A DNA stretch of 63,656 bases, counting the filler, from Welwitschia mirabilis (lineage: Eukaryota), in NCBI GenBank assembly GCA_051453625.1. It is 5 parts of one record of this genome, joined end to end, with 100 filler letters (N's around TTAATTAATTAA, not from the genome) between each part and the next. Parts side by side here need not be neighbours in the genome. Positions count along the whole stretch, not along the records: positions 58,573 to 61,195 come from JBOZIK010000001.1; 4 more parts are not named here. One strand, written 5' to 3'. Under the pieces are notes generated by a model. That model saw nothing but the letters and a program-made list of their open reading frames with translations. It searched no databases and was not told the DNA's origin. This document shows, piece after piece, positions 1-63,656 of this stretch. Both the position numbers and the translations under genes were made by a program. The first letter of the stretch is position 1; every line of letters begins with the position of its first letter.

Positions 1-1013
1 TGGATGGAGGCAGAGAGCTTTCTTTGTGTAGATTTATTTTATGACTTAGGGTAGGGCTCTGTGTAAGAGCCCCAATGTGATGAAGGGGCACCTTTTCAAC
101 CCTTGTATGGTTGCCAGCAATACCTTCCATCTAGCTATGTTCATGTCGATATCTTTCTGAGGTTGATGTCGAATTTCCATTGAAGAAGGATCTGAAGTAG
201 AGCTTTGTAAAGAGCTTAGGCCTGAAGCTAGAGAGGGTTGAGCATGCCTACCTTATTCCTGAGGGATGGAAGACAGTTAAGCTTGAGCTAGCTCTTAGGC
301 TAGGCTGGAGAAATGTTCCTCAGAAGTCTTCTATTGGGCTGGTGGAGAAGACAAATCCCCTCTTACTGGGGCTGCCTTACACAGTAGTTTCCTTTAGAAT
401 AGGGTTCGTATCAGAAGAGGATCTTCTTATAGAAGTTCTCCTAAGGGGATTCTAGTAAGGACGAAGATGAGAGCCAAGATTAATCTTGAGTTCCTTGAAG
501 AATCATTCCTTTTTAGAACTTGAATGAAGAAGAAAGGCAAATTCACCTGACGTCCAAAATCTAGGGCTTTAAGAAAAGAAAAATTAATATCTGAGAGCTT
601 GGAAAATTTTTCTTGATTGGATGAAATAATGGTTTACAAGTCCTGCACTTAGTCCTCAAGGGGACAGTAATGCCTTCCTACTGATATGCCCACTAGGGAG
701 TTTGGAAACTCCATCGAGAAAGAAATGGAGAGCTTCACATTGGCCTCTGCTACCAAATGGAATTTGCTCACCTTCTGTTGGGATTTCCAGTAGCCTGGAG
801 AAAGATTCTTTCAAGATTTTAATTGAAATTCTTTGGAAAGTAGTACATTCTCCTCTCCATCACCTATAAAAGGGGGCAATATTAGGTCCTCTGTCTCCTC
901 TCAGCTTTTGCAAAAGGAGGCTTATACCCCACCACCTATATCTTTTCCCATAAAGCATGACATCCTTCGAAGAGGTATGAATCAAAAGGCTCAATTGTTG
1001 GAGTAACGTCCAT
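1..1013 (-). pseudogene. In-frame C-terminal extension of LINE ORF2: Transposase_32-like (env-like extra-ORF type) domain plus S/P/R-rich tail
   Basis: The frame continues from QIW*IRNKLIFNN...FQLKIA into MDVTPTIEPFDSYLFEGCHALWEK..., WRGECTTFQRISIKILKESFSRLLEIPTEGEQIPF..., FLKALDFGRQVNLPFFFIQVL, with a few frameshifts and stops. The same peptide is conserved in copy B (60332-61195). Family assignment is by motif resemblance only. Confidence 0.6.
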
Positions 1014-4000
1014 TGCGATTTTGAGTTGAAAATGAATGTGAATAATCCTCCTTACTATATATATAGGAAAGGGTAAGGGGGCATTATTAAAAATTAGTTT
1101 ATTTCTAATTTACCAAATTTGCTAAAAAGTAAGATAAATCCCATCTAATAAATTCATGTTAGGGGTGTTGCAAGTTTGATAGTACTTCGTCATTATGGAG
1201 ATTAATTCCTTGTTCCAAACACATTAATGAAAAAGATGTTGTATTGTTTCTGGATTAGATTGACAAATGGGACAATTAGGATCTACTTGAAATCCTCTTT
1301 TTAGCAATTGATCTCTTGTCAAAATTATCTAATGGTCTTTTATCTAGTAGAAAACCTTAATTTTTGCTAGAACCTGTCTCCTCTACTACTTATTGTAACC
1401 CTCCTCTATTTTCCATACTTCTTTATAAGGATCTGCTTGGTTAAATTAGTCTGGCAAATGTGCAAGTCTATAAGTTGTTAGTGAGCTTAGCTGAGATGCC
1501 TCCTTAAATAAGACTCCCCATTTTCAAGTGTCTAATCTCTATACTTGTAATTAATTAAATCACACTAGGGTTACCCTCCTTTTTGCAATCTCTTTAGGAT
1601 TTTATGTGCTCTAGAGAGGATACAGTCTTTGGGTTTTTGAATCCCCCAACCTTCTAATTCTGTTGGGCTAGCAATAATCTCCTATTTACAGAGATGAATT
1701 AGTGGTGATCCTTTCCTCCTATCTAAATAAATTCCTTTAAGGTTTTGGTTCTNNNNNNNNNNNNNNNNNNNNNNNNNNNNNNNNNNNNNNNNNNNNNNNN
1801 NNNNNNNNNNNNNNNNNNNNNNNNNNNNNNNNNNNNNNNNNNNNNNNNNNNNNNNNNNNNNNNNNNNNNNNNNNNNNNNNNNNNNNNNNNNNNNNNNNNN
1901 NNNNNNNNNNNNNNNNNNNNNNNNNNNNNNNNNNNNNNNNNNNNNNNNNNNNNNNNNNNNNNNNNNNNNNNNNNNNNNNNNNNNNNNNNNNNNNNNNNNN
2001 NNNNNNNNNNNNNNNNNNNNNNNNNNNNNNNNNNNNNNNNNNNNNNNNNNNNNNNNNNNNNNNNNNNNNNNNNNNNNNNNNNNNNNNNNNNNNNNNNNNN
2101 NNNNNNNNNNNNNNNNNNNNNNNNNNNNNNNNNNNNNNNNNNNNNNNNNNNNNNNNNNNNNNNNNNNNNNNNNNNNNNNNNNNNNNNNNNNNNNNNNNNN
2201 NNNNNNNNNNNNNAATAAATTCCTTTAAGGTTTTGGTTATTTTCTGTATGATATTTCTTTGGGAGAAGGGGAGGGGGAGGGGGGGCGGGGGATAACGGAA
2301 GCTATGTACCAAAAGGATGAAATCAAGCAGGAGTTTGTAAGAATGATTTTAGCCTTTCAAAAGAGAAATTTGTTTTGCCAAGATTTGCATCGTCTTTGGA
2401 CGGATTCCAAAATATAATTCCAGATACTAGTCTTATGCCAGTTTCGAAGAGGGATACCAAGGTAAATATTCTGTAAATCTCCTAACTTTGTACTTAGTAT
2501 TCAAGTGATTTTGTCCCCTTTGATACATTTTCTTCCCAAGGTGTGTATTTTTTTTCTTAATTTGTTTCAATTAGTATAAAGCCCTGTTATTTCTACAAAG
2601 GTATTCATAACATTTCTTATTGCTTTTTCTTACTAACATAAAGCTTTGATTATGATGATGATGTCATCTGCATAGTAATTGTTAAGAAAGGTTTGGCCTC
2701 CAATTCTAGTTCCTGTAACTCCGTTCCTTCTTAAGAAAACCCACGAAGCGTTCATCATAAATAGAAAAAGTTATGGGGCTAGGGAGTCCCCTTGTCTCAA
2801 ACCTATTCCTATTGAGAAGAACTTTAATCTATGATTATTGACCTCCATACTAAATTCAGTAGAATCCTACATGTCTAGTCAAAGATTAATAATATCTTAA
2901 TAGAAGCCTCTTTTTCTAAGAATACATCCTAAAGCTTGCCAACTAACAGAATCAATAAGCTTTAGCAATATTTAGTTTAGCAATAAGGAGAGAAAATTTT
3001 TATTTTTTAACAGAGTAAATGATCTCATGAGTCAAGAGGATTTGGTCTTAGATATACCTAAATCAGATGAAGCTGGCTTCGTTGTCTTAAATCGCATGGG
3101 GAAGCAAGGGGATGATTCAGCCAATCATGANNNNNNNNNNNNNNNNNNNNNNNNNNNNNNNNNNNNNNNNNNNNNNNNNNNNNNNNNNNNNNNNNNNNNN
3201 NNNNNNNNNNNNTATGAGTACCACTCTAGTTCTATTCATCTTCCTCAAAATTCATCTGTTGTGGAAGACTTTCTGCATGACATCTTGAAGGTTGTCCTCT
3301 GGAATAGAGAAGTGTGATTTGAAAAGTTCGATTGTCCAACCATCAGGACTAGGGGCTTGGTTATTCTTCATAGATCTGACTACAGTTAAAATCCATTCTC
3401 TACTCAAGGGTTTAGTTAACATATTATTATCTTCATTTGAGACTTTCTTGTTTTTTGCAATAAGCCAAGGGTGATATCCTCCCATTCCCAGATTCTCTGA
3501 AGATGGACGTACAATTCCTTAGCTATTTCCTCTTCATTTTCTGTGACTTAAGCTGTTATAGAAAGTCTTCTGATTTTGTTATCATATCTATGCTGGTTGG
3601 TCTACTAGAAGAATAATTTAGTATGTTTATCACCCTCTTTTAGCCACTTGATTCTTGAGCATTTTCTTCAATAATGTTCTTCTTCATCATTTATTTCTTG
3701 GAGATTTACTAGGCACTGATATTCTCTGTTTTAAAAACTGTCCTGATTACCTCCCTCCTCCTACTTGGTTTGGATAATTTGGAGTTCCTCTTCGAGTTCA
3801 ACCTTTGATTTAAAACTCTCTTTGTCTTTCCTTCTCCAATCTCTAATATAGGCATTTAGGGTATTGAGGCCTCTGTATAAAAAAGTGAAAGGTTGGATTC
3901 CATCATACTATGCTCATAATTTTTCTAATAGAACTATGGTTTCTATGTGATTGATCCAATACCATTTCATACGAAATGGAGTTTTCAGGGGTAAAATCAC

Positions 4001-4668
4001 TCCTAATCTAAGCTTGATGGGACGATGATCCGAGGCAATCTGGTTCTGATCATAGGCTTTAAATAGAAGCTTAGCTAGATCCTTCTCAGCCAGTACTCTG
4101 TCAATATTAGACATTATCAGATCTGTACCAGTTCTTCTATTCGACCACGTATATTTGCACCTAGCATTAGGGACATCTATGAGGGAATATCTTACTAAAA
4201 AATCTTTTAGAGTTGAGGCCCCTCTAGAATTCCATTTATCACACCCTGATTTTTCCTAGCGGTAAAGACATTAGTTGAAGTCACCTAAAATAATCCATTT
4301 AGATTTATCGACTATGGTCCTCTGAGCTTCTTCCAATATATCGACCTTGTCTTGATTATGCTGTGTACTATAAATATTTGTGATAGTCCAGCCTTCATTC
4401 TTAAGGAAAATTATGATGTGGTTCCTATTGTTGTAAATCAGATCAGCCTCTTTTTTGATAGAAATCGAAAGGCCACCAGAGTTACCTTGGGCTACAACAG
4501 TGAAAGATATCCATTACCGCCCTAGATTCATCATTCCCATATCATTTTTTTATCTTTGTTTCCTATAAGCAAACTAAATCAATATTGTTTTAACTGATCA
4601 GATTTTGTAGGGTCTTTTTCTTATAGGAGAACCCTAATCCCCTACAATTCCAAGTGAGGCTATTAATT
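1014..4668 (-). pseudogene. LINE ORF2 (APE endonuclease - reverse transcriptase - zf-RVT), disrupted
   Basis: TWNCRGLG (~4630-4655), WIILGDFN (~4270-4297), NIDRVL and ASDHRP (3914-4114 ORF), APSPDG (3252-3485 ORF), LRQGDSLAP (~2775-2800), YADD (~2665), YLGIP (~2455), DPNCPICQSNPE (~1250-1285). Many stops. Confidence 0.9.
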
Positions 4669-5760
4669 GGGGGTGTTTTTGCCCCTTTTTGGGAGCTTTT
4701 CCTTTCCTTAAGGTATCTTTGATGATATCCTGAGAGCTATTTGCAAAGTTCTCTATTATTTCTCATTCTCGAAGGGTTCTATTACTAGGCCTTCCCTTCA
4801 TTTGAGTTTCCACTTCATTGGATTCATCTTCATGTTGAGGTTGTTAGGTATCATTCTCGTCGATAAGAGGTTAAAATGGGTTATGCTCTTGTTTTTGTAC
4901 CTATTTTTCTTACTTTCCTTGGGAAAAATAGTAGTACTTTTTCCCGTTTGTTCCTTTTTTTGCTTATGTTGGTATATGTTCTGATTGTGCCCTATTTTCC
5001 CATAAAAAGTGTAGGTTTCCTTTTTCTTTTCTTTAATGTCAATTAGTCTTTTCTAGCATTCTTCATGTAGATGACCCAATCTTCCACAGTGTGAGCATTT
5101 TTTTTTTAGGAGGAGCACATCTTCCAGAGAGGTGTTTTGATTTTCCACAGACTGTGCAGGGAATCGGAAGGTTCTCATATGTAACATCAAGATCACAAGT
5201 GCCTCATTTAGATTTAAACTTTATAGATTGTATCTCTTTAGTATTCTCGATGCTCATCCAAACATAGAATCTGGCCAACACTAATCCTGTCTGTTTAATA
5301 GTGATTTTATTAAGTTTAATCAAATCTCCAACATGGAGCGATCATTCTGCTTAATAGATCTTCATCCCAAAACTCCAAGGGGAACTTATGGATGTGGATC
5401 CAGATCAGAAGTTTCTTAAATAGATTCAGGTCCGATTATGCCCTCAGCATCCATTTGGCTAGGGCAAGGCCTTGTATGCCAAAAAACCATGATCCTCTTT
5501 TGATTATTTCATCCTGTTCTTTTTCATTATCTAGTTGAAATAATACCAACCCTTCTGGCATTGCAATAATGTCAACTTTACTAACTCTGTCCATTTCATA
5601 GTAACCCATTCACGAATCGGATCCAACCTTGGATGAGGATCAGATGAGACAAATTTGCCGATCATGCTGTATTTGAGCTTCTTCTCGATTTCACTACATG
5701 CATCTTCATTGATGTCCAACACAAGGGATTCCCTTCCTTGGAGAACTAAGTCTTCTCCAT
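4664..5760 (-). pseudogene. LINE ORF1 (DUF4283-like N-terminus, CX2CX4HX4C zinc knuckle), disrupted
   Basis: ATG at 5760 (MEKT*FSKEGNPLVLDINEDACSEIEKKLKYSMIGKF...LDPIREWVTMKW). CSHCGRLGHLHEEC at ~5056-5097, followed by a K-rich tail. The start matches copy C at 63468. Confidence 0.85.
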
Positions 5761-6455
5761 ATTGGGGCTAAAATCCTCAACAAAAGCCTTAACATCTAAC
5801 CAAAACTGCAAAATAAAATATTCCCATAACTTACCTGAANNNNNTCTATCTTATAACTGAATTTGCGACCCCCCCTTCTTCCCCCCTCGCTCTATGACTA
5901 GGGACTGAAACCACCCTTACCGATCTGCAATCCTCCAAGCTTTTCTCCCTCCTATGCTCCAGATCTGTCGAAACCTCTCAGAGCTTCAAAACCCTAGCCA
6001 ATGATTCTCTAAATTAGCACATCATTCCTTGGTCCTTTTATTGTCTTTATCTTCATTTCAAAAGAATCCTACTATTAAAACAAACATCCTTAATACATTA
6101 TACAAAACCACTTATTTTAAAATAATTTTTTTCTTTTAGTTTTTGGTTAAAAGACTTTTTTAAAAATCAAATTCACAACCATAAAGTTATGGAGCACTTC
6201 TATGCTAATTGGGTCTCTATGTTAATTTGAATTACAAATTTTAAGCGTCTATATATCAATATTAATCTCACTGATATTATATTTGTGATTTTTATTTATA
6301 ATTGTGATAACTTATTGATTGTTATTAAGTTATATCATATATTATGAATTTTTATTATAACATATTATTTTCTTATGATATATATTATCATAAACATTTG
6401 TATCATCCTATATATGTTTTTCATTTGTGATGTTTCAAATAAACTATTACTATTA

Positions 6456-11348: not shown

Positions 11349-13211
11349 ATGGCGTGGGGAGCAGGAGGCCTGGAATTGGAAGACGAGAGCGGACCCATGG
11401 TGGATGCATTCATTTCGGCCTCAGAGAACCATTCCTGGCCCGGCCAAGACACTCTGCAACAGCGGCTGCAGAGTCTTATCGATCCGGCGATGCAGAAATG
11501 GAGTTACGCGATCTTTTGGCGCTGCTCTTACTCTCCGTCGCTCGGCTTCTCCTGGGGGGACGGCTACTTCAAGGGCACGCCTCCGTTGCCGGCGTCCGCC
11601 GCCGCCGATCAGACGCAGAGGAAGAGAGTTCTGAGGAAGTTGCAGGCGCTTGTCGACAACGCTTTCTCTGCGGATTCCTTGGAAGATGATGTTACGGATG
11701 TCGAATGGTTCTATCTTGTTTCCATGACCAAGTCGTTTGCTTCTAACGGAACTTCTGTAGTTGCCAGGGCCTTTACCTCCGCGGTTCCGCTTTGGCTTTC
11801 CGGAGCGAGTTCTCTGCAAGGATCGGCGTGTCCGCACGCTTCTGAGGCCGCTGACCTCGGAATCCGTACCTTAGTCTGCGTTCCGACTTCGAACGGGGTC
11901 GTGGAGCTTGGATCCGTGGATGTTATTGCTGAAGACGCAGCTTTCGTTCTGCAGACGCGAAACTGGTTTTCCGAAGGAGTTGCTGCGACTCCGGGACTTT
12001 CGGCTCCCGGCTCGCCGATGCCTGGCCACGATTCGATTCTCGGAGACCTTCCATTCTTCTCCGCGGAGGAAAATCGCAGAAAGGAGCGGAATTCTTCGTT
12101 CCTCTTAAATGAAAACCCTAATCCTAGGTCGTTGCAGAAGAACGGCCTGGTTATCGAGGGAAAGAACGAGTTTCTCAACTTCGGAGGCGGAATTTCCTCG
12201 AGCTCTTCGCAGAAATCCGCCATCTCCGTCTTCGATTTCTCCTCCGCGTCCGCCGTTTCGAAGGACTTCGATGACAGCCCGGCTTTCGGAAAGAATGTAG
12301 ATAATCTTTCGCAGAAATCGTACTCCGCAGAAAACCCTAGCCCTAGAACAAAACCTAATCCGAACACACTGTCTCTCATGGATCAACTCAAAGGCCTGGT
12401 GAAGCTCGACGACAGATCAAAATCTCTCTTCGACTTCGAATCCGGCGTCAATTCCCTGAGCTTCGGCGCAACGGGGGATTCGAGAAACACCATCGACGAG
12501 AAAATTTTTCTTCCGTCGAGAATCGAGTCTGATAGTTCGGATTTAGAAGCGGCTTCGTTTAAAGAACCAGAACAAGCTTTCGTCGAAAGGAAGCCGCGGA
12601 AGCGAGGAAGAAAACCTGCAAACGGCAGAGAAGAACCGCTGAATCACGTCGAGGCGGAACGCCAGCGCCGCGAGAAGCTGAACCAAAGATTCTACGCTCT
12701 GCGCTCCGTCGTTCCGAACGTTTCCAAGATGGACAAAGCGTCGTTGCTCGGGGACGCCGTTTGCTACATCAACGAACTCCGAAGCAAAATCCAGAGCCTG
12801 GAGGCGGACAAAAAAGAGCTCCAGACGCTTCTGGAAAGCTCGAGAAAGCGCCTTGGAAGCGCGGGACCTGCCAGCAGCTTCTGCGAGTTCATGAAGGAAA
12901 GAAGCTCGCTGAACCGCAAACAGGCGTCCTCCGAAGCGAATGAAGCCAGGATTATCCGAAAATGCTCTTCTGTGGACCTGGAAGTCCTTGTTCTGGGCCC
13001 TGAGGTTATGATCAGATTGCAGAGCTCAAAACGTGGGCATCCCGCGGCCAAACTGATGAACTCCATCCAGGAACTTGAGCTGGAGTTGCAGAACGCGAGC
13101 GTCTCCACCGTGGATGATTTGATGCTCCAAAACGTGATGGTTAAGATCGCCTGCAAGGCTTACTCGCAGGATCAGCTGAAAGCTGCTCTACTGACAAGGT
13201 TGTGCAGTTGA
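11349..13211 (+). CDS. MYC2: MYC2-like bHLH transcription factor (subgroup IIIe/IIId, jasmonate signalling), intronless, 620 aa
   Basis: N-terminal bHLH-MYC_N/JAZ-interaction region ([67 protein letters not shown]); [56 protein letters not shown] bHLH; C-terminal ACT-like domain ([45 protein letters not shown]). Uninterrupted ORF. The symbol denotes family resemblance, not proven orthology. Confidence 0.96.
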
Positions 13212-21000: not shown

Positions 21001-24000
21001 GATAGTGAATGAATTAGACCTTTGACTGTAGTACCTAAGAAAGGTGGGAAATGAAGGATTGTATTGATTTTAGAAGATTAAATGAAGTAACTAAGAAAGT
21101 CCATTGTCCTTTACCTTTCCTCAATCAGATACTTAATAGAATTCAAGGACATGCTTTTTAGTGTTTTCTTGATGGGTATAGTGGTTATAATTAGGTTTGT
21201 ATTACTAGTGAGGATTATGCTAAAACTACCTTTACTTTATGTTTTGAAACTTTTGCTTTTAGACACATGCCTTTTGGACTTTGCAATGCTCTTGGTACTT
21301 TTCAACGTGCAATGATGGGTATTTTTTCTGATATGTTAGAGGATTCAATATAAATTTTTATGGAGGAATTCTCAATCTATGATGAAAGCTTTAAGCAAAT
21401 CTTAGAAATATTAGAGAAAGTCTTTGATAGATGCATTACTAGTTGTCTTCATTTAAGTTGGGAGAAAGGTTTCTTTTTGGTTAACAGTGGAATTGTCTTA
21501 GGTCATTACATTTATGATAAAGGAAAAAGGATGGATCTTAAAAAATTTAGTATCATTAAAAACCTAACCCCTCCAGCCAATATAAAATAAGTTCGATCCT
21601 TCCTTGATTATTGTGGTTTTTATTGTCGCTTTATTTAAGATTATGAAAAAATTTGTAAACCCCTTTACTTGCTACTTGAAAATGAAGCTAAATTTGATTG
21701 GAGTGAATCTTGTTAGCTTGCTTTTAATACACTTAAAAATAAAATCTCTTCTACTCCTATTGTAACAGGATCCAATTGGAATAAAGATTTTGAGTTAATA
21801 TGTGATGCTAGTAATATTTCCATGGGTNNNNNNNNNNNNNNNNNNNNNNNNNNNNNNNNNNNNNNNNNNNNNNNNNNNNNNNNNNNNNNNNNNNNNNNNN
21901 NNNNNNNNNNNNNNNNNNNNNNNNNNNAATATTTTGAGTTAATATGTGATGCTAGTAATACTACCATGGGTGGGGTGCTTTGTCAAAAATATGAAAATGA
22001 TTTTAATGTTATAATTATTCATAGTAAAACTTTGTCTAAAGCTCAAATAAATTATACTACTATAGAAAAAGAGATGTTATCTATTATCTTTTGTCCTGAT
22101 ATGCTTAGAAAATATCTTTTAGGCTTTTATAAAAATGTTTATATCGACCATGTAGTAACTAGATACCTCATGACCAAGAAAAATTATAGTGCTAGACTTA
22201 TTAGATGGATCCTTCTCATGCAAAAATTTAATTTAACCATTATTAATAAATCAAAAAATCATAATAGTATAGCTGACCATTTGTCACATCTTTCTTCCTA
22301 TCTTGATGATTTTATGGTTATTTATTCTTCCTTGGATGAATAACTTTTTGCTATATCTCCTACCCATCCNNNNNNNNNNNNNNNNNNNNNNNNNNNNNNN
22401 NNNNNNNNNNNNNTTAATTAATTAANNNNNNNNNNNNNNNNNNNNNNNNNNNNNNNNNNNNNNNNNNNNTCACTACATTTCTGATAAAGGAAAAAGGATG
22501 GATCCTAAAAAAATTAGTATCATTAAAAATCTAACCCCTCCAGCCAATATAAAATAAGTTCGATCCTTCCTTGATTATTGTGATTTTTATTATCGCTTTA
22601 TTTAAGATTATGAAAAAATTTGTAAACCCCTTGACTTGCTACTTGAAAACGAAGCTAAATTTGATTGGAGTGAATCTTGTTAGCTTTCTTTTAATACACT
22701 TAAAAATAAAATCTCTTCTACTCCTATTGTAATAGGATCCAATTGGAATAAATATTTTGAGTTAATATGTGATGCTAGTAATATTTCCATGGGTAGGGTG
22801 CTTAATCAAAAATACGAAAATGATTTTAAAGTTATATCTTATTATAGTAAAATTTTATCTAAATCTCAAATGAATTATACTACTATAGAAAAATAAATTT
22901 AAAAGTGATTATATTTTGTTTTGATATGCTTAGACATTATCTGTTAGGCTTTCCTACAAATGTTTATACTAATCATGTAGTAATTAAATACCTCATAACT
23001 AAAAAATATTCTAGTACTAGACTTCTAAGATAAATCCTCCTCATGCAAGAATTTAATTTGACCATCATTGATAAAGCATGAAATCATAATAGTATAGCTG
23101 ATCATTTGTCACATCTTTCTTCCTCTCTTAACGATCTTATGATTAATGATTATTTTCCAGATGAACAACTTTTTACCATATTTTTTACTCATCCTCCTCT
23201 TTGATGTGCTAATATGGTTAATTATCTTATTACCATGAAAACACCATAACATTATACTTATAATTAAAGAAAATCTTTTCTTCATAAAATAGGTGACTAT
23301 GAATGGATAGAAGCATATATTTATCTTAGGTCTAAAGATCAAATCATGCAAAAATGTGTACCTGAATGAGAAAAANNNNNNNNNNNNNNNNNNNNNNNNN
23401 NNNNNNNNNNNNNNNNNNNNNNNNNNNNNNNNNNNNNNNNNNNNNNNNNNNNNNNNNNNNNNNNNNNNNNNNNNNNNNNNNNNNNNNNNNNNNNNNNNNN
23501 NNNNNNNNNNNNNNNNNNNNNNNNNNNNNNNNNNNNNNNNNNNNNNNNNNNNNNNNNNNNNNNNNNNNNNNNNNNNNNNNNNNNNNNNNNNNNNNNNNNN
23601 NNNNNNNNNNNNNNNNNNNNNNNNNNNNNNNNNNNNNNNNNNNNNNNNNNNNNNNNNNNNNNNNNNNNNNNNNNNNNNNNNNNNNNNNNNNNNNNNNNNN
23701 NNNNNNNNNNNNNNNNNNNNNNNNNNNNNNNNNNNNNNNNNNNNNNNNNNNNNNNNNNNNNNNNNNNNNNNNNNNNNNNNNNNNNNNNNNNNNNNNNNNN
23801 NNNNNNNNNNNNNNNNNNNNNNNNNNNNNTTATCCATTAGAATAGAACATAAAGGAGCTTGTACTTATCATCCACAAACCAATGGTCAAGCCAAACATGC
23901 AAATAGAGAAATTAAGGAAATGATACAAAAAATTATCTTTGTTAATAATAAATCTTGAGCTTCTAAGCTTAACAATGTTTTTTGCGCTTACTGTGCTACT

Positions 24001-33000: not shown

Positions 33001-34120
33001 AAAGTGATTATTGTAAAAATAATTTAAACTTTATTTTTTTATATGATATTAGAAGCTAATAGATCGAGATTTTAAAAAAAAATTAATGGTATATAAATTA
33101 TCAAAATGTTTCTTCTCACTTATGAGAACTAGAATTTGGGGAAAGTGAAGATGAAATTTATTCTTATAAGAAAACAAGTATTAGCTATTTGTTTAAAAAN
33201 NNNNNNNNNNNNNNNNNNNNNNNNNNNNNNNNNNNNNNNNNNNNNNNNNNNNNNNNNNNNNNNNNNNNNNNNNNNNNNNNNNNNNNNNNNNNNNNNNNNN
33301 NNNNNNNNNNNNNNNNNNNNNNNNNNNNNNNNNNNNNNNNNNNNNNNNNNNNNNNNNNGATTTTATCTTCTCAAGATTCTAGCATGCGAATGCCACATCC
33401 ACATTTTTACTTATTTTTAAAAATGCAAAGATTAAGTTTAATGAATCATTTAAATAGATTTAATTATTTTGAAATCTTCAACTGATATACATATTATATT
33501 CTTAACATGCTGTTATATTGAATTTCACTTTAAAATCCTTTTGTTTCATTTAAAATATCACTTTATAATCTTCAAGAATAGTTCTTGCAGTGGTGATGAT
33601 GTTGTTTACTTTTATTTTTGTTGCAACTTCCTAGAAATTATGCATTAATAAATGTAAATTGTGGAGGCTTNNNNNNNNNNNNNNNNNNNNNNNNNNNNNN
33701 NNNNNNNNNNNNNNNNNNNNNNNNNNNNNNNNNNNNNNNNNGGCTAGGTAAGCCTTTATGAGACGTTGTGTAACCCATACTACTATAACCATAATCCCCA
33801 CTACTATAACCACCCTCCTTTATGATGTCTTATCTTTATATGCTCATGACTCTTTACATTTCACCAAACTTCCATTATAAATAAGACCCTTCTTCTCCTT
33901 TTTTGTTACTTTCATTTTTGGAGAATCCTTCACTACCAAACCTTAGAGCTTGGATAAGTCTTCAAAACTTTGAGCCTTGGAAATCTTTGGGAATTTTCAA
34001 ATCTTTGTTTTAATCCAAGTNNNNNNNNNNNNNNNNNNNNNNNNNNNNNNNNNNNNNNNNNNNNTTAATTAATTAANNNNNNNNNNNNNNNNNNNNNNNN
34101 NNNNNNNNNNNNNNNNNNNN

Positions 34121-35570: not shown

Positions 35571-37794
35571 TGTTAGATTATGTTTTGCCAATTGATGTCA
35601 AACTAATGTTTTATGTATAGCAAATTTTATGTATCTTATGCANNNNNNNNNNNNNNNNNNNNNNNNNNNNNNNNNNNNNNNNNNNNNNNNNNNNNNNNNN
35701 NNNNNNNNNNNNNNNNNNNNNNNNNNNNNNNNNNNNNNNNNNNNNNNNNNNNNNNNNNNNNNNNNNNNNNNNNNNNNNNNNNNNNNNNNNNNNNNNNNNN
35801 NNNNNNNNNNNNNTCTCATGGAGTCGACTGGACCTATAACCTTAAGAACCAGCATCCCTAAACTAGATGGCAAGAGGTCGACCAGACCTTTATGGGGTCA
35901 ACCAAATTTGAGAACCTAATAAACAGTATCCCTGAACTAAATAATAAGGGGATGACCAGACCTATGATGGAGTTAACTGGATCTGTGAATCAAAGAATAG
36001 TACTCCTAAAATAATTGCCAAGGGATTAACTGGACCTATGATGAGGTTGATCAGACCTGAGAACTATGTAGCTGANNNNNNNNNNNNNNNNNNNNNNNNN
36101 NNNNNNNNNNNNNNNNNNNNNNNNNNNNNNNNNNNNGTTGGAAACTGGAAAGATCTTTATCAAGACAAGTAGGTGACCAGATTTTGTAGTGGACGACCAG
36201 ACTCAAGTTAGCTAGACCTAGATGGAGTCGACCGGACATGAAGCCATAAGAAATTGAGGCAATTGAAATTTTCACTTGGGTGACCTGTATAAGTCATGGT
36301 ACTAGATGGGGTCGACCGAACTTTTAAGGGGTCAACTAGACAGAACGGAACTAAATTTTTTAATCTATTTTATATTTGTTATATATCCATTAGATAGCCA
36401 TTTTCTAGCCATTTATAGCCATTAAAGGCACATTTTAAATGTAGTAAACTATAAAATCCTTCCAATATAAATAGCCAAGAGATAGAAGACCATAGGATCT
36501 TTTTTGGAATCATTTTCAATTGTGTTAATATTTTAGATTTAAGGAATAAGCACTGTAATCTTGTGATATTCACTATTGTGTCTTTGGCATTTGTACTTCT
36601 AACCAAGGAAGATCTATTGTCTGAATCATCTCTATATTCAAGGTTAGATTTTGTGCTTCATCTATTATACATNNNNNNNNNNNNNNNNNNNNNNNNNNNN
36701 NNNNNNNNNNNNNNNNNNNNNNNNNNNNNNNNNNNNNNNNNNNNNNNNNNNNNNNNNNNNNNNNNNNNNNNNNNNNNNNNNNNNNNNNNNNNNNNNNNNN
36801 NNNNNNNNNNNNNNNNNNNNNNNNNNNNNNNNNNNNNNNNNNNNNNNNNNNNNNNNNNNNNNNNNNNNNNNNNNNNNNNNNNNNNNNNNNNNNNNNNNNN
36901 NNNNNNNNNNNNNNNNNNNNNNNNNNNNNNNNNNNNNNNNNNNNNNNNNNNNNNNNNNNNNNNNNNNNNNNNNNNNNNNNNNNNNNNNNNNNNNNNNNNN
37001 NNNNNNNNNNNNNNNNNNNNNNNNNNNNNNNNNNNNNNNNNNNNNNNNNNNNNNNNNNNNNNNNNNNNNNNNNNNNNNNNNNNNNNNNNNNNNNNNNNNN
37101 NNNNNNNNNNNNNNNNNNNNNNNNNNNNNNNNNNNNNNNNNNNNNNNNNNNNNNNNNNNNNNNNNNNNNNNNNNNNNNNNNNNNNNNNNNNNNNNNNNNN
37201 NNNNNNNNNNNNNNNNNNNNNNNNNNNNNNNNNNNNNNNNNNNNNNNNNNNNNNNNNNNNNNNNNNNNNNNNNNNNNNNNNNNNNNNNNNNNNNNNNNNN
37301 NNNNNNNNNNNNNNNNNNNNNNNNNNNNNNNNNNNNNNNNNNNNNNNNNNNNNNNNNNNNNNNNNNNNNNNNNNNNNNNNNNNNNNNNNNNNNNNNNNNN
37401 NNNNNNNNNNNNNNNNNNNNNNNNNNNNNNNNNNNNNNNNNNNNNNNNNNNNNNNNNNNNNNNNNNNNNNNNNNNNNNNNNNNNNNNNNNNNNNNNNNNN
37501 NNNNNNNNNNNNNNNNNNNNNNNNNNNNNNNNNNNNNNNNNNNNNNNNNNNNNNNNATTGTTGAGAGTGGAGTAGGGGGTTTACCGAACCATTATAAATC
37601 CTATGTGCATCTATTTGATACTTTTGTTCTTTCAGTTAGTTTATTTCTTTACTTCTGTTAACTTTTCTTGTCATGCACGTTTTGGATTAGTAAATTGTTT
37701 TACCCAAGTTTTTAATTTATCTTAGATTCATTTAAAATACTATGTTGTAATTTTAAAAACCTATTCACCCCCTCTAGGGTTCTCGATCCTATCA
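35571..37794 (+). repeat. 5' LTR of the Sirevirus-like element (gapped)
   Basis: TGTTAGATTATGTTTTGCC start matches 57449; ~74-bp tandem units bearing GTCGAC-type palindromes (35820-36060); CCAATATAAATAGCC at ~36462; ends ..CCTATCA. Confidence 0.85.
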
Positions 37795-57448: not shown

Positions 57449-58472
57449 TGTTAAATTGTGTTTTACTAATTAATATCAAACTAATGTTTTTTGTATAGTA
57501 AATTTTGTGTGTCTTATGCAAAAGATGTTAATTACTTGCAAGTCAAAAGAGGAAACCAAAACCATCGAATTCTAAGCACAAGAAACCTATCAATTCATTT
57601 ACCTTCTTGAAGGATCAACTGAACTTTCAAGGGGTCAACCACACTTGAAGCAAACAGATAAAATAAACTAAATCTAAAGTGATCGATTGGATTTCTGGTA
57701 GAGTTAATCGGATCTGTAACCTCGAGAACTAACGTCCTTAAACTAAATGGAAAGGGGCTGACTGGGCCTTTATGGGGTCGATAGGATTTGAGGATCTACT
57801 AAACAGTATCCCTGAACTAAATAATAAGGGATTGACCAGACCTATAATGGGGTTGACTGGATCTATAAACTAAGGAATAGTACTCCTGAACTGATTGTCA
57901 AGGGGTTGACTAGACCTATAATTAAACTGACCAGACTTGAGCACTTTATAGTTGATACTCGTAAGCCTATCATCATGAAGTCGACCTAAAGGAATCGACC
58001 AAACCTAATGCTAGAAATTGGAAAGATCTTTATCAAGATAAGCAGGTGACTAGATTTTATAGTAGGTGATTAGACTAGGATCGACCTAACTAAGATGGAG
58101 TTAATCGGACATGCAGCCATAAGAAATTGGGGTGATTAAAATTTTTACTCAGGTGACCTATGTAAGTCACGACACCAGATGGGACCTGCTGAACTTTTTA
58201 GTGATCGACTTGATGGAATGGAACTAAAATTTTTCATCCATTTTATATTTGTTATGTATCCATCAGATAGCCATTTTCTAGCCATTTACAATCGTTGGAA
58301 GTGCATTTCAAATGTTATAAACCCTAAATGCCTTCCAATATAAATAGCCAAGAGATAGAAAACCATAGGATCATTTTTGAAAGCATTTTCAATGTGTTAA
58401 TCTTTTGGATCTAAGGAACAAGCACTATAATCTTGTGATATTAACTGTTTTGTCTTGGCATTTGTACTTCTG
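57449..58472 (+). repeat. 3' LTR of the Sirevirus-like element (end lost in gap)
   Basis: TGTTAAATTGTGTTTTAC after PPT-like AATGGGGATAT; collinear with 35571-36600, including the repeat units and CCAATATAAATAGCC (~58334). Confidence 0.85.
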
Positions 58473-58572
58473 NNNNNNNNNNNNNNNNNNNNNNNNNNNN
58501 NNNNNNNNNNNNNNNNTTAATTAATTAANNNNNNNNNNNNNNNNNNNNNNNNNNNNNNNNNNNNNNNNNNNN

Positions 58573-61195
58573 TAATGTAATGCAAGAAATATTCCATAAT
58601 AGATAGATTCCTAGAGAGATGAATAGAACTAGAGTGGTTCTTATACCAAAAAAAAAGAAATGCTAGTGGACCAAAGGACTTTAGGCCCTTAGGAGTCTGC
58701 AACATCATTTACAGAATCTTTGTAAAAATTATGGTTGGCCGAATTGCCCCCTTACTTCCCAATGTGATTTCAGAAAACCATGTTGGCTTCATTCGTTCCA
58801 GGTATATCCAAGCCCAATTCCTTTTGACTAATGAGATTATTCATTTTGTTAAAAAGTACAAATTTCCACTCCTCATTGCTAAATTAGATATTTCTAAAGC
58901 TTATAACTCTATTAGTTAGCAAGTTTGGGGTGCATTCTTAAGAAAACCAACTTCTCTCAAGATATTATTAATCTATAGCTAGACATGCAAGCTTCTATTG
59001 AATTTAGTGTGGACGTTAATAACCATATATCAAACTTATTCTCAGTGGGAAGAGTCTTGAGACAAGGGGACTCTCTATCCCCATACCTTTTTCTATTTGT
59101 GATGAATGCTCTACAGGTTTTGTTAAGAAACAATGGAGTTACAGGAATCAGAATTGGAGGTCAAACATTTCTCAACAATCACTATGCGGACGATACCATC
59201 ATCATAACCAAGGAAACCTATCATCAAGTAAAAGCTATAAAAAATTTCATAACCACATTTGCAGAGGCAATAGGGTTTCACACTAATTGGAATAAATCAA
59301 GAATATACACCTTAAGCAAACAATGTAAATAGGGGGCAAAATCGCCTAAATTCTAAACACAAAGTTAGGAGACCTTCAGGACATCTACCTAGGAATCCCT
59401 TTTTGAAATTGGCACGAGACAAGTACTTGGAATTACATTATGGAATCTATTCAAAGGAGGTGCAGTTCTGGGCACAATAATGTTTTTTTCCTTAAAGGCT
59501 AAAATCATTCTCACAAATTCCTATTTAATCTCATCTTTTGGACATATAGCTTCCATTATCACTCCCCTCCCCTCAAAAAATATCATACAAAAAATTGATA
59601 TAATCTTAAAAGGCTTTATTTGGTCAAGATGAAAAGACCACCATGGAATACATCTTTAAAAATGGAACATTATTGCCCGTCCAAAGGAATCAGAAGGTTA
59701 GGGGATCCAAAAGCCCTAAGATTGTATTCTCACTAGAGTTCATATGATCCTAAAGAGATTGCAAGAAGGAGGGCAACCCTGGTATGACTTAATTAATCAT
59801 AAGTATAGAAACTAGACAATTTACCATAGGGTGTTATATCTAAGGAAGCATCTTTGCAAAGCTCACCAATAACGTACTGAATTGAACATTTCTCAGACTG
59901 AAATGTCCAAACAGATTCTTATCAAGAAATATGGCAAACAAGATGGTTACAAGAAGTATTGGAGGGAACAAATATCGAAAAAAGTTAAAGTCTTTTGTTG
60001 ACTAAAAGAACATCACCAAATTTTGACAAGAGATCAATTATCTAAAAGGGGATTTCAAGTTGATCCTAACTGTCCCATCTGTCAGTCTAATCCAAAAATA
60101 GTACAACATCTTTTCCATCAATGCGTTTGGAATAAGCAATTAATTACCATAATGATGAAGTACTATTAAACCTACAGCGCCCCTGACATACATTTATTAG
60201 ATGGGATTCACCTGACTTTCTGGCATATCTGGCAGATCAAAAACAATTTAATTTTTAATAACACCCCCTTACCCTTCCCTATATATACAGTAAGGAAGAT
60301 TATCTGCACTCATTTTCAAATTAAAATCACCATGGAAACCACTCCAACTTTTAAGCCTGCTGACCCAGGCCTCTTCGAGGGATGCCCAGCTCTTTGGGAA
60401 AAATACAAGCGGTGAGGTGGGGACCCCTTTTACACAAGCTGAGAGAAGATATGGAGGCTGATATCGCCCCCTTTTACAAGTAATGGAGAGGAGGATGCAC
60501 TACTTTCCGAAGAATTCCAATAAAAATTTCTAAAGAATATTTCTCCAGACTGCTAGAAATCCCAGCGGAAGGTAAGCGGATCCCATTTGAAAGCAGAGGC
60601 CAATAAGAAGCTCTCCATTTCTTTCCTAGTGGAGTTTCCAAACTACTTAGCAGATACATTAGCAGGAATGCGTAACCACCCCCATGAGGACTTAGGAAAA
60701 AATTTGCAGACCGATATTTTGTTCAATCAGGAAATTGTTCTAATCTTTTAAGTATCCATTTTTAATTTCTTAAAGCTTTTGACTTGGGACGCCAAGTATT
60801 TTTTCCATTTAAGTTCTCAAACACAAAGACTTCTTAAGGCACTCAGGATTAATCCTGACCCTATGGAGAGCAGCACATGAAGCTTGAGCCAGAGAGGCTC
60901 CTTCCCCTCTTCCCTGTTGTCATCCTTACCAGACTTCCCTAGGAGAACTTCTATAAGAAGTTCCTCTTTTGTTAGGAACCCTACTCCCAAGGAAATGATA
61001 ACTCAATCCAAACCTAGCAAGAGGGGGATGTCTTTGCCCTTAAGTCACTCAGAGGAATTGTCTTTGCCATCCGAGGAGCATTCTCCTAGCCCAGCCCAAG
61101 AACCGTTTCTAGCTCACCCTTCTCCTAACCCTCGGGAATAAGGTGGACATGCCCAACCCTCTCATTCTCCAGCTTTGAGCCTAGCTCTCCACAGT
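58573..61195 (+). mobile_element. LINE copy B fragment (RT, zf-RVT and C-terminal extension), bounded by scaffold spacers
   Basis: VVLIPK..GPKDFRPLGVCNIIYRI; KLDISKAYNSIS; LRQGDSLSPYLF; HYADDT; YLGIP; DPNCPICQSNP..VQHLFHQC; WHIWQIKNNLIF. Homologous to copy A. Confidence 0.92.
60332..61195 (+). pseudogene. In-frame C-terminal extension of LINE ORF2, copy B (Transposase_32-like plus S/P-rich tail)
   Basis: ..IICTHFQIKIT-METTPTFKPADPGLFEGCPALWEKYKR..LLHKLREDMEADIAPFYK*WRGGCTTFRRIPIKISKEYFSRLLEIPAEGKRIPF..FADRYFVQSGNCSNLLSIHF*FLKAFDLGRQVFF.., then the 60884-61141 S/P-rich ORF. Confidence 0.6.
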
Positions 61196-63269
61196 NNNNN
61201 NNNNNNNNNNNNNNNNNNNNNNNNNNNNNNNNNNNNNNNTTAATTAATTAANNNNNNNNNNNNNNNNNNNNNNNNNNNNNNNNNNNNNNNNNNNNAAATA
61301 ATGAACAAACAACTAAAAGATGAAAGAGCCATATATGATCATCCTATTATTGGGATATCATTCAAATAGAAGAGCAAAGAGTTACTACAACTACAAATTA
61401 GATAAATGTAATGAAAAGTTAAACATGTTGAGAAAACAAAGACATGAAAATTAACAATTGCATCAAAAGAATGAAAAGACATCTAAAATAAGTGGATCTA
61501 TTTAAAACCAAAACAAGCTTGATTGAAAAGTTAGAGGTACAAGGCCAAATTAGTAGTTATTTGAATTATGTGCTACGTTTTATTCCCTAAGTACATTCAA
61601 AAGTAAACATTACGCTTAGTTTTAAGAAATTATCAAACTTAGGTTGGTAAAAACATCTATTTTAATGACACACATTCATAACGTGTATCACTTTACTTTT
61701 TTATTTGTTATAAGTTTTTCCTTCCCCACATAGATACATTTGTAGTTGAGATTTTCTGTTTAGTAGACCTCTAAAAAATGCTTATGTTGCAGTTGTTTAT
61801 CTATTCTATTTTAAATCATAGACTTTTTGGAATCATTTATTTAATGTGTTACGAAAGAATGTGCTTTCAGTAGATCACAAGTTGCAACAACATATGTATT
61901 AATTGTAATGATTTCTTATAAATTTATCGTGATTTAGGAGTTTTTGAGTGCTGTTTATTTGGAATTGATTGATCAATAAACAAAAGAGAATGACCACATT
62001 GACCCTTTTTTTAAAATTAAGATATGCTTATAAAGATGGATGACAAGGATTTAACTCAATTAATCAAGATAGATGTATGCAGGGTTGATTAATAAACTAA
62101 ATCAATTGACTTGTAATTAGTTTTCCTCATTTTTGGCAGAGTGACACTATTATGAATGATCTTTTGAAAAGGTTAAAAAAAAAATTAAATGTCAATGAGA
62201 GACTCTAATGTGATTGAGGGGAAAAAGTAAGATTAAAAACACTCCATGGGTATCAAAGAGAAGAAACCCCTACATTTGTCAGAGACAGTTTTGAAAAATT
62301 AATAGTTTTGAAGGATATCTCAAAGAGACTATTGTGAGGGTGATTTGTGATTAAAGATTAATGTGATCTCTCAAAGTTAACATGGAATTATAGCTTTCAT
62401 CTAATAGAGTTACTCTAATCCTTAAGTTTAAATATGTGCATCCTTGAATCTTGCCTTCAAATTTATGCCTATGCAATTTTTTTAATTTTAGTTTTCATGA
62501 TATTACATATTACGTTGTTGAAGGTCTTTTTAACACAAAACTAGAAATTTAGATTTTACCTTGAATCTAAATCATTAGTTTCATCTATATAAAACCAAAA
62601 GCTCAAGCAATGTTTATAATTACTTGTACCAAATTAAACTAATTGAGAAGGATTAATTATTATGAGTCAAAATTACACAACTCTTTATGAACTATAAGTT
62701 TCATACTCTTACTTTAAAACTAGTTAGGAAATGTCGAATCACTACATATTAAATTTACTTTACACAAATGCTATTTGAATGTGGTGTAATAGTGTAATTC
62801 ATGTATGATAATAGTGATGAAGAAATGATAGATGCATTCTCACCATTAAGATGAAACTAGTAAATGAGAACACTACAAGTTTTGAAAAAATAAATAAAGA
62901 GGAAGAAGAGAAACAAAGCAAATATTTGACAAAACTCTTTCACCTAACAAAATGAAACATAGAATAGGCCTCATTGACAACCATAACAATGTGACTAAAT
63001 GCAATAATTCTAACTCACATAAAGTATAGAATTTTAAATTTCAAGTAGTGAAAGTTTTAAAATCTTCTTAACCTTATGAGATATGTTAATGCTATTATGT
63101 CAAAACCTTATGATAAAGATGAAAGAATAAAAAATTTCATACTTGTGATCCATGTAAGTGATGAAGTACTATCATTGGCTAAAAAAATAAGAAGAGCACA
63201 AGCATTAATTCTAAGATACTTTATCAATTGAAAATGAAGCATAGGAAGGAATGTAATCACTAGGATAGT

Positions 63270-63656
63270 TTGGAGGGATTTGGAGTGAAGGAGGAAGCTA
63301 GGGTTTGGAAGGTCGGATCGGTGGGGGCAGTTTTGGTTTTGGAAAGCTGCGGCCCATAGGGGATGGTATCGGCCACTAGACATACAGTAACAGGTAAGTT
63401 ACGGTATTTCTTTGTTATTTTCACATTGATTCGAACTAGGGTCTAAAAAGGGGTTTATGCCCTCAAAATGGAGAAGATTCAGTTCTTCAAGGAGGGAAAA
63501 ACCCTATCCTTAGACATAGATCAAGGCGCGTGTTCGAAAACAGAGAAAAAACTTCAATGCAGTTTAATCGGCAAGTTTATTTCATCGGGTCCAAGACCTA
63601 GACTTGATCTCATCAGAGAATGGGTAGCCACAAAATGGACTGGGGTTAGTAAAGTC
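63270..63656 (+). mobile_element. LINE copy C, 5' end (5'UTR and start of ORF1 at 63468), runs off the window
   Basis: GC-rich UTR with TAGGGTTT; ORF1 MEKIQFFKEGKTLSLDIDQGACSKTEKKLQCSLIGKFISSGPRPRLDLIREWVATKW aligns with copy A ORF1. The 5' boundary is approximate. Confidence 0.85.

Follow-up and report, generated by a model that had tools for sequence, protein, structure and literature searches.

We propose that in the gymnosperm Welwitschia mirabilis the ancestral ORF2 of an L1-type LINE family ran on past the zf-RVT region into a selected extension, which the master elements would have translated and which has decayed in the copies at hand; the probability that we give to this reading is about 70%. 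The window, i.e. the whole stretch of DNA analysed here (63,656 nucleotides, filler included), contains two dead copies of this very abundant family, termed A and B (Table 1). The stretch after zf-RVT was formerly protein-coding, as seen from the codon-phase bias between the two copies, from dN/dS and from the ORF of a Welwitschia transcript (P0007). Phase bias and dN/dS, combined with the bridging of the junction by this transcript ORF, make it most likely that the extension was in the ORF2 frame in the ancestor. According to our proposal, the ancestral ORF2 would have stayed open in one frame over no fewer than about 210 codons past zf-RVT, reaching about position 60800 of copy B and possibly about 60950. 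Purifying selection on the extension appears to have been as strong as on the zf-RVT region, so the protein segment that it encoded would have been of importance to the element. The extension is a real and probably lineage-specific C-terminal addition to ORF2, which may have been captured from an LTR element.

Both copies are pieces of an L1-type LINE, in agreement with the earlier note on this DNA, and are about 76% identical at the nucleotide level. A non-LTR-type reverse transcriptase is present in copy B as two RVT_1 matches (6.9e-11 at 58623-58919 and 5.1e-12 at 58979-59332) above the 29.6-bit cutoff, and the zf-RVT region typical of L1-type LINEs was found in both copies, in each case exceeding the PF13966 cutoff of 27.5 bits (the match of copy B spans residues 107-180 of the translated query P0005). 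Upstream in copy A (3917-4255, minus strand), a match to Exo_endo_phos_2, the APE-type endonuclease, stays under its cutoff of 27.4 (E=0.0017, 18.7 bits). Copy B is 5'-truncated at a filler (58473-58572), copy A continues past the edge of the window (base 1) and lacks a poly(A) before that point, and for neither copy is a 3' end, poly(A) or target-site duplication visible within the window. Homology between the copies persists for about 1 kb beyond zf-RVT, with B 59602-60857 corresponding to A 1744-475 (76% identity) and, further 3', B 60923-61163 to A 461-231 (70%). The host genome is GC-poor; the passage on base composition in PMC8275611 gives ~29% GC and attributes it to long-term deamination of methylated C in transposable elements. 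The GC content of the window is 33%.

Table 1. LINE copies A and B and their parts in the window (columns: feature, positions, strand, remarks)
Copy B	58573-61195	+	decayed L1-type LINE piece with RVT_1 and zf-RVT
Copy A	5767 to 1	-	decayed L1-type LINE piece of the same family
RVT_1 part of ORF2, copy B	58573-59332	+	two profile matches; homology with copy A from 58575
zf-RVT (CCHC zinc-binding region of ORF2), copy B	59918-60139	+	PF13966, 2.3e-13, 51 bits
zf-RVT, copy A	1206-1379	-	PF13966, 2.6e-10, 41.3 bits; residues 125-182 of query P0006
ORF2 tail, copy B	60170-60412	+	open 81-codon frame; W.IW..N.LIF motif, Met 60332, LFEGCPALWEK; TGA 60413-60415
ORF2 tail, copy A	939-1109	-	Met at 1013; ends ...LFEGCHALWEKI, then TAG
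A-run at junction, copy B	60399-60403	+	one A short of the version joining ORF2 and extension in frame
Extension proper, copy B	60420-60798	+	frame of 60364; stops at 60481, 60604, 60673, 60685, 60763
Extension, copy A	526-931	-	frame differs from ORF2 tail; TGA 862-860 and 658-656; 1-base shift near 614
Indel-rich stretch, copy B	60799-60955	+	probable end of ancestral ORF; no phase bias in 60799-60862; indels versus A
S/P/R-rich open frame, copy B	60881-61138	+	86 codons, 49% S+P+R
Copy A tail	1-475	-	homologous to B as far as 231, then window end
Filler N44-TTAATTAATTAA-N44	61196-61295		cuts off 3' end of copy B

The earlier note had described a frame that passes from ORF2 into the extension without a stop. 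Neither copy bears this out: the ORF2 frame of copy B is open only over its 81-codon tail and ends at a TGA, that of copy A closes at a TAG after ...WEKI, and the extension is out of frame with ORF2 and carries stops in both. Its frame in copy B is offset by one base from ORF2, with eight stops in 192 codons (60364-60939); in copy A it contains two TGA codons in 155, followed by another frameshift. The Met and the peptides said to be shared are indeed found in both copies, and such sharing by itself reflects common descent at 76% nucleotide identity. Between 60402 and 60420 the wobble phase moves by exactly one base, and it is here that copy B is one A short. Thirteen X1 contigs (depth 47.8 of 459.8) and 13 of X5 (80.2 of 850.6) have an extra A after 60398; about 10% of the DNA contig depth at this site has the extra base and about 90% is without it, like copy B. 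Among RNA reads it is present in two at depth 4 (X14) and four at depth 6 (X17). Another 48 contigs of X5 are clipped at 60403 and have a version similar to copy A, in which TAG replaces the Gln codon of P0007. It is thus precisely at the junction that much of the family is interrupted, and master elements may have functioned with the extension untranslated. The window copies have been broken by one-base indels and by stops of the C-to-T type, the latter as expected in this heavily deaminated genome.

While shared peptides alone indicate descent, the phase of the substitutions is an independent signal. Over 60420-60798, the differences between A and B are distributed over codon positions 3, 1 and 2 as 50, 18 and 27 (third position 50 of 95; p=2e-4), and as 43, 15 and 22 with CpG-type transitions removed (43 of 80; p=4e-4). 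The third-position bias is significant in each half of this stretch (p=0.023 and 0.0075); for zf-RVT plus ORF2 tail (59940-60402) the corresponding bias is 49/32/22 (p=0.004). Estimated from a single pair of decayed copies, dN/dS is 0.30 (98 codons) and 0.15 (22 codons) for the extension and 0.25 for zf-RVT plus tail. In the four frames with a different wobble position it was 0.53-1.05 (60421-60728). Identity between A and B is 0.76 in the extension, 0.78 in ORF2 and 0.68-0.69 in the S/P/R-rich tail.

Beyond about 60800, the phase of the A/B substitutions provides no coding signal. From 60799 to 60862 the phase counts are 6/4/8 (p=0.47), indels of 10 and 52 bases separate the two copies within the indel-rich stretch, and stops common to A and B are found in two frames around 60940-60955. 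The S/P/R-rich tail proposed in the earlier note is real as to its composition, but shows no sign of coding: its phase bias is non-significant (31/18/24, p=0.18) and the homologous part of copy A contains stops in this frame. Most likely, it is 3' UTR or weakly constrained sequence. Of the roughly 300 further codons originally suggested, about the last third, the S/P/R-rich tail, lacks a coding signal.

The junction is intact in one family member that is transcribed: P0007, a 91-aa ORF in a Trinity transcript of W. mirabilis, leads from the ORF2 tail (M..TPTFEPADPSLFEGCPALWEK) into the extension in a single frame. It is 73% identical to the extension query P0003 over residues 4-80 of the latter. 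P0007 carries an Arg where copy A has TGA and copy B TAA, and CGA was read at this codon in five RNA reads of X14; its terminus, ...ESRGQ, coincides with the TAA of copy B at 60604. No RNA data set was found to contain precisely this sequence; all RNA reads have less than 99% likeness to the window and therefore derive from other family members. At 80% likeness, contig records over 58573-61195 number 19601 in X1 and 17955 in X5. Their summed depth (X1/X5) does not fall at the junction, with 1547/2878 in the bin 60333-60420 and 1481-2237/1862-2505 in the bins 60421-60684, and carries on to 61195. Among the pieces listed, 6 of 16 bridge the junction (60412/60420).

As to the identity of the extension, the earlier statement that it is no RNase H agrees with our Pfam searches of both copies, in which HMMER with P0003-P0007 gave no match to any RNase H family, RVT_3 included. 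The further suggestion, that of a Transposase_32-type domain, received a mixed answer. Pfam hmmscan returned no family at E<=10, and thus neither Transposase_32 (PF20167) nor ATHILA ORF-1 (PF03078), for P0003, P0004, P0007 and seven stop-free pieces, a weak negative given that these queries are decayed or short. With phmmer against 1.84 billion protein representatives, the extension P0003 retrieved P0007 and two chance matches to repeat proteins, P0008 and P0009; Transposase_32 proteins were absent from the result. The one metagenome locus matched by P0007 (L001) was discarded as spurious, being a high-GC bacterial contig matched through the short word AEGERIPFE. Homologous-protein searches with P0004 (near, longer) and P0007 (longer) remained without a match, and none of the protein searches that we ran revealed a homologue of the extension in any other organism. 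A sequence search of the PDB with a four-row profile of the extension gave no match at E<=10, and AlphaFold2 on the four-row alignment returned an unusable model (mean pLDDT 32.2, pTM 0.17). Of the 67 window ORFs of at least 75 aa, 35 were searched for a Transposase_32/ATHILA copy for comparison, with none found; the other 32 are LINE ORFs already scanned or frames overlapping a bHLH gene.

Protein-language-model neighbours of P0007 point in the direction of LTR elements. At rank 2 (0.89) we found a cluster of 55 members, 49% of which carry PF20167, at rank 3 (0.88) a "Putative plant transposon protein domain-containing protein" with PF20167 on 16% of 196 members, and at rank 6 (0.88) ATHILA ORF-1 (PF03078) on 87% of 86 members. 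All scores with a family are below 0.9 and so count as a lead only; wrong or opposite frames can score too. Seven of the ten best family-bearing neighbours have a family or clan in common, and the recognition value of 2732 is above the mark of 2300. Shared features number 156, whereas 170 are typically reached by true members of a family, and the 67-aa core of copy A (P0001) had no usable neighbour. The order of motifs, FY ... RG ... F..LL.IP.EG, presumably resembles that of the Transposase_32 domain, as the earlier note had suggested. In its passage on extra ORFs, PMC11728184 places PF20167 in the 3' extra ORF of Athila and describes it as related to PF03078. The extension may be distantly related to this Transposase_32/ATHILA ORF-1 domain, known from the extra ORFs of LTR retrotransposons, which we regard as a lead only.

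This leads to a narrower form of our main reading, in which such a domain from an LTR-retrotransposon extra ORF was fused to the L1 ORF2 and replaced RNase H. The neighbour scores, the recognition value, the motif order and the known occurrence of PF20167 in Athila argue for it, whereas the empty Pfam scans of all pieces, the phmmer result, the sub-0.9 scores with too few shared features and the failure of P0001 argue against it, and we consider it tentative, well short of even odds. The more specific scenario, that a gnetophyte L1 lineage swapped or bypassed the RNase H slot with an LTR-derived Transposase_32/ATHILA ORF-1 domain and kept it under purifying selection through thousands of copies, is a little less probable still and on balance unlikely. 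Alternatively, ORF2 could end at the junction, at the TAG or the frameshift, with the extension as a separate downstream unit that is reached by readthrough, frameshifting or reinitiation or that was translated in an older subfamily only. This would account for the in-phase TAG between ...WEKI and the extension in A-like copies, including the 48 clipped contigs, and for a periodicity that persists downstream of a site at which most of the DNA depth is without the extra A. P0007 and the six RNA reads (at a combined depth of 10) are uninterrupted, though, there is no Met or other start signal after the junction, and decay in this genome most often takes the form of changes from CAG or CAA to TAG or TAA and of slippage in A-runs; we regard this alternative as improbable.

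Two further explanations would do away with the sense-strand protein altogether. If the extension were ordinary non-coding 3' UTR, with peptides shared through 76% identity alone, the stops and frameshifts in both copies, the lack of a family match on either strand and the missing coding signal past about 60800 would be readily understood. For 60420-60798 this explanation is disfavoured and indeed very improbable, in view of a third-position bias in just the phase expected from ORF2, the low dN/dS, an identity close to that of ORF2 rather than that of the S/P/R-rich tail, and the independent transcript ORF. Slightly less probable again is that the conserved coding frame is antisense to the LINE, in its 3' region (B 60477-60722, minus strand; A 630-866, plus strand); this frame is free of stops over 82 codons in B and 79 in A. 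It uses the same wobble position and so inherits the same bias, it has a dN/dS of 0.38, and it would show the more usual pattern of fewer changes at second than at first positions (18 versus 27, not significant). On the other hand, the frame in copy A has no Met, synonymous changes are fewer than in sense (16 versus 20 codons), antisense ORFs over the extension gave no Pfam match, the sense phase is that of ORF2, and P0007 reads in the sense direction; by a rough estimate, chance alone leaves such a frame open opposite a genuine sense ORF of similar size in about 5% of cases.

Under our preferred reading of a selected ORF2 extension, the additional segment would occupy the slot that RNase H takes in other plant L1s, itself not being an RNase H, and active masters would have translated it within ORF2p, where it would act in the element's own cycle. 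By analogy to other C-terminal segments of ORF2, its role would most likely be that of an RNA/RNP-binding or host-interaction module. ORF2 proteins of LINEs seldom gain domains, the known cases being L1s of plants and oomycetes with an archaeal-like RNase H and insect R1/TRAS elements with a viral helicase, and these gains are informative on the modular evolution of retroelements. A gymnosperm L1 that was hugely amplified and had a C-terminal addition of about 130-210 codons under selection would add to these cases. Were the extension truly linked to Transposase_32/ATHILA ORF-1, LINEs and LTR elements would share an accessory domain of unknown function, whose retention in two unrelated replication strategies would argue for a general role, e.g. 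in RNA/RNP handling or in the evasion of silencing. A true capture would make this the first LINE known with a Transposase_32/ATHILA domain and would provide a handle on the function of Athila-type extra ORFs; in the literature covered, from which subscription journals and supplements are excluded, we found no description of a LINE with a Transposase_32-type domain. If the link is false, the segment is an unannotated lineage-specific ORF2 tail, useful for the annotation of gnetophyte transposable elements and of modest wider interest.

Among known systems, plant L1s of the Ta11 type are closest in layout, as they share the APE/RT/CCHC ORF2 with an additional segment after the CCHC region at the C-terminus; there, according to the section of PMC5348765 on these elements, the segment is an archaeal-like RNase H, whereas the present extension has no RVT_3 match and a single Welwitschia transcript as its only detectable relative. 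The human L1 ORF2p offers a model for a possible role of the tail, its C-terminal segment around and after CCHC, which is without enzymatic motifs, being reported in PMC3821027 to bind RNA. The Welwitschia segment differs from it in being an addition past the usual end of plant L1s, and a sequence relation is not expected. The extra-ORF domains PF20167 and PF03078 of Athila (Ty3/gypsy) are the nearest family neighbours by language model (0.88-0.89) and are likewise plant segments of unknown function borne by transposable elements; similarity at the HMMER level is absent, and the present segment is part of a LINE ORF2, whereas in LTR elements the domain has an ORF of its own. A precedent for a LINE ORF2 that gained and kept a foreign C-terminal domain is found in the insect R1/TRAS elements, whose extra viral-type helicase domain is treated in PMC4686597 and PMC5563155. 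That case concerns another clade of LINEs, a host from another kingdom and another domain, and the donor family of the R1/TRAS domain, unlike that of the Welwitschia extension, has been identified by sequence.

Former coding capacity behind the zf-RVT domain of the LINE was assessed from the differences between its two copies in the window (A and B; see table), counted by codon position in the frame of 60364 over an ungapped block at 60420-60728 plus 60729-60798. Differences at codon positions 3/1/2 numbered 50/18/27 over 60420-60798 (p=2e-4), and 43/15/22 (p=4e-4) after removal of CpG-type transitions; each half of the block is significant alone (p=0.023 and p=0.0075). The undoubted ORF2 block 59940-60402, taken as reference, gave 49/32/22 (p=0.004). 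The dN/dS comparison proposed in the earlier note (A/B pair, Nei-Gojobori) yielded 0.30 at 60421-60728 and 0.15 at 60730-60798, with 0.25 for ORF2 at 59940-60402, and 0.5-1.05 in frames without the common wobble position. Codon-phase bias and dN/dS thus indicate that approximately 60170-60800 was coding while the A and B lineages diverged. Of the claimed extension of ORF2, the part up to about 60800 is borne out as coding and in ORF2 phase, whereas the S/P/R-rich tail beyond carries no coding signal; to a coding, ORF2-phase extension from 60170 to about 60800 we assign a probability of roughly 0.7. Past ~60800 the phase signal is absent (6/4/8 at 60799-60862; 31/18/24, p=0.18, not significant, at 60940-61181 when read in the S/P/R ORF frame), A/B identity is 0.68-0.69 versus 0.76-0.78 before, and the tail probably has no coding role. 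GC content is 0.34-0.35 in the RT, 0.42 in the ORF2 tail, 0.40 in the extension, 0.48 in the S/P/R tail and 0.29 in the flank 61296-63400; the rise toward the LINE 3' part may reflect a younger age, lower methylation or a different origin.

In each copy, an antisense frame that shares the wobble position is free of stops for about 80 codons, with a dN/dS of 0.38, and the conserved frame might in principle lie on that strand. The sense frame is nevertheless favoured, since its phase is that of ORF2, the related transcript ORF P0007 (see below) is a sense ORF, and synonymous changes affect 20 codons in sense versus 16 in antisense, so that we consider the antisense reading improbable.

The sense frame is not preserved intact in the window. 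Both copies are interrupted and the extension lies in another frame, contrary to the earlier view that the ORF2 frame enters it stop-free. In copy B the ORF2 frame is open at 60170-60412 and meets a TGA at 60413; the downstream peptides are one base out of phase with it, in a frame of 192 codons that 8 stops interrupt (at 60481, 60604, 60673, 60685, 60763, 60835, 60850 and 60856). In copy A a TAG after ...WEKI ends the ORF2 frame, and the extension, again in a different frame, contains TGA at 862-860 and 658-656 plus a further 1-base shift. The peptides common to A and B, the Met at 60332 (B) and 1013 (A) and the open S/P/R-rich frame of copy B are present as described, and because copies of 76% identity give common peptides in any frame, a shared peptide alone is no proof.

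A shift of the wobble phase by exactly one base falls between 60402 and 60420, at a stretch of five A in copy B. A phmmer search against 1.84 billion representatives returned P0007, a Welwitschia mirabilis Trinity ORF of 91 aa taken from EukProt, as sole true relative (E=3e-28, 73% identity). This ORF runs in a single frame from the shared Met through ...LFEGCPALWEK and then ...GWGPLLHKLRGD...PFYKRWKGGRTTF... to ...ESRGQ, with an Arg at the codon that is TGA in copy A and TAA in copy B. Five reads of the RNA set X14 have CGA at this codon, and an extra A behind 60398 occurs in RNA reads of X14 (2 at depth 4) and X17 (4 at depth 6). These differences from the window copies fit the Welwitschia genome as described in PMC8275611, with ~29% GC driven by deamination of methylated cytosines in transposable elements. 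An A-like version, found in 48 clipped contigs of the DNA run X5, is also in phase, with TAG at a codon that is Gln in P0007. In DNA contigs spanning 60398 the extra A, carried by 13 contigs each in the runs X1 and X5, makes up only about one tenth of the depth. Much of the LINE family is interrupted right at the junction of ORF2 tail and extension; a single ancestral ORF spanning both would be the parsimonious reading.

Contigs from two DNA runs match 58573-61195 at 80% likeness in 19601 and 17955 records; their summed depth is level over the junction, then lower but continuous to 61195, and the junction is spanned by 6 of 16 listed pieces. Within the visible sequence, up to 61195, the extension belongs to the LINE element; no true 3' end, poly(A) or target-site duplication is seen, copy B ending at a linker and copy A at the edge of the window. 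A deletion derivative of the family, which skips 387 bases over the junction (60186-60574) with 6 other letters inserted, occurs in two DNA runs, with one contig in each.

Features of the window
Feature	Position	Strand	Remarks
LINE copy A	near 5767 (ORF1-like start) to 1	-	leaves window at base 1
LINE copy B	58573-61195	+	5' start inside RT domain at linker; 3' end at linker 61196-61295
Last base of zf-RVT, copy B	60139	+	
Extension, copy B	60420-60798	+	
Extension, copy A	526-931	-	
S/P/R-rich open frame, copy B	60881-61138	+	
Third LINE copy, start	63447-63656	+	same or related family; runs off window
Dispersed repeat	57449-58471 and 35571-36600		79-86% identity in three blocks
MYC-type bHLH transcription factor	11349-13208	+	intact single-exon ORF, 620 codons
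Six-frame stop linkers	22370-22469, 34021-34120, 58473-58572, 61196-61295		at joins; identical N44-TTAATTAATTAA-N44

The window (33% GC, 45 N runs) is draft sequence, with many gaps, from a GC-poor plant genome. A and B are alignable over B 58575-61181 at 68-78% identity (BLASTN, MAFFT), B 59602-60857 corresponding to A 1744-475 (76%) and B 60923-61163 to A 461-231 (70%). Since linkers bound copy B on both sides, both of its ends are joins, not biology. Pfam confirmed RVT_1 and zf-RVT in copy B and zf-RVT in copy A, whose Exo_endo_phos_2 match stays below threshold. Neither blastn nor tblastn revealed a third extension copy within the window. The open frame of the third LINE copy agrees in 32 of 53 aa (60%, E=1e-23) with copy A's ORF1-like frame (5534-5767, -). 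The dispersed repeat directly upstream of truncated copy B is unrelated to copy A. Among 35 long ORFs (8197-56692), Pfam matches to RT_RNaseH (1.4e-24), RT_RNaseH_2 (3.6e-16) and Retrotran_gag_2 (1.4e-8) are debris of gypsy- and copia-type LTR retrotransposons. The bHLH ORF (bHLH-MYC_N 8e-44, HLH 8e-12, plant ACT-like 9e-6) is the sole clear host gene and lies in an island of higher GC content where several frames hold long ORFs.

As to what the segment is, none of the read-throughs or pieces matched an RNase H family in Pfam; the segment is therefore not RNase H, in agreement with the earlier note. The Pfam search suggested there gave no family at E<=10 for P0007, the LINE-derived peptides P0003 and P0004 or any stop-free piece on both strands; a word-indexed protein search with extension queries and a PDB sequence search gave no match, and an AlphaFold2 model (4-row alignment) reached a pLDDT of 32. 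The sole positive pointer came from a protein-language-model search with intact P0007 (recognition 2732), whose shared-feature count of 156 is in the range of "chance hits or distant relatives". Its first match was an unnamed Streptophyta cluster (0.91), followed, at scores that count as leads (<0.9), by clusters with PF20167 Transposase_32 at 0.89 (49% of members) and 0.88 (16%) and one with PF03078 ATHILA ORF-1 at 0.88 (87%); of the ten best matches with a family, 7 share one family or clan. PF20167 is reported from an Athila 3' extra ORF and as related to PF03078 (PMC11728184). The Transposase_32 resemblance proposed in the earlier note may be real, though we hold it for the less probable outcome. 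A link of the extension to LTR elements, if true, would raise the interest of the finding.

We class the element as an L1 whose ORF2 probably carries an extra C-terminal segment kept under selection. Open-access literature text (main text) yielded no LINE with a Transposase_32/ATHILA-like or comparable extension. Plant Ta11-type L1s, as described in PMC5348765, carry an archaeal-like RNase H at the ORF2 C-terminal end, downstream of the CCHC motif, and it is this slot that the segment described here occupies. Foreign C-terminal domains on a LINE ORF2 have a precedent in the insect R1 and TRAS elements, for which a viral helicase at the ORF2 end is described (PMC4686597, PMC5563155).
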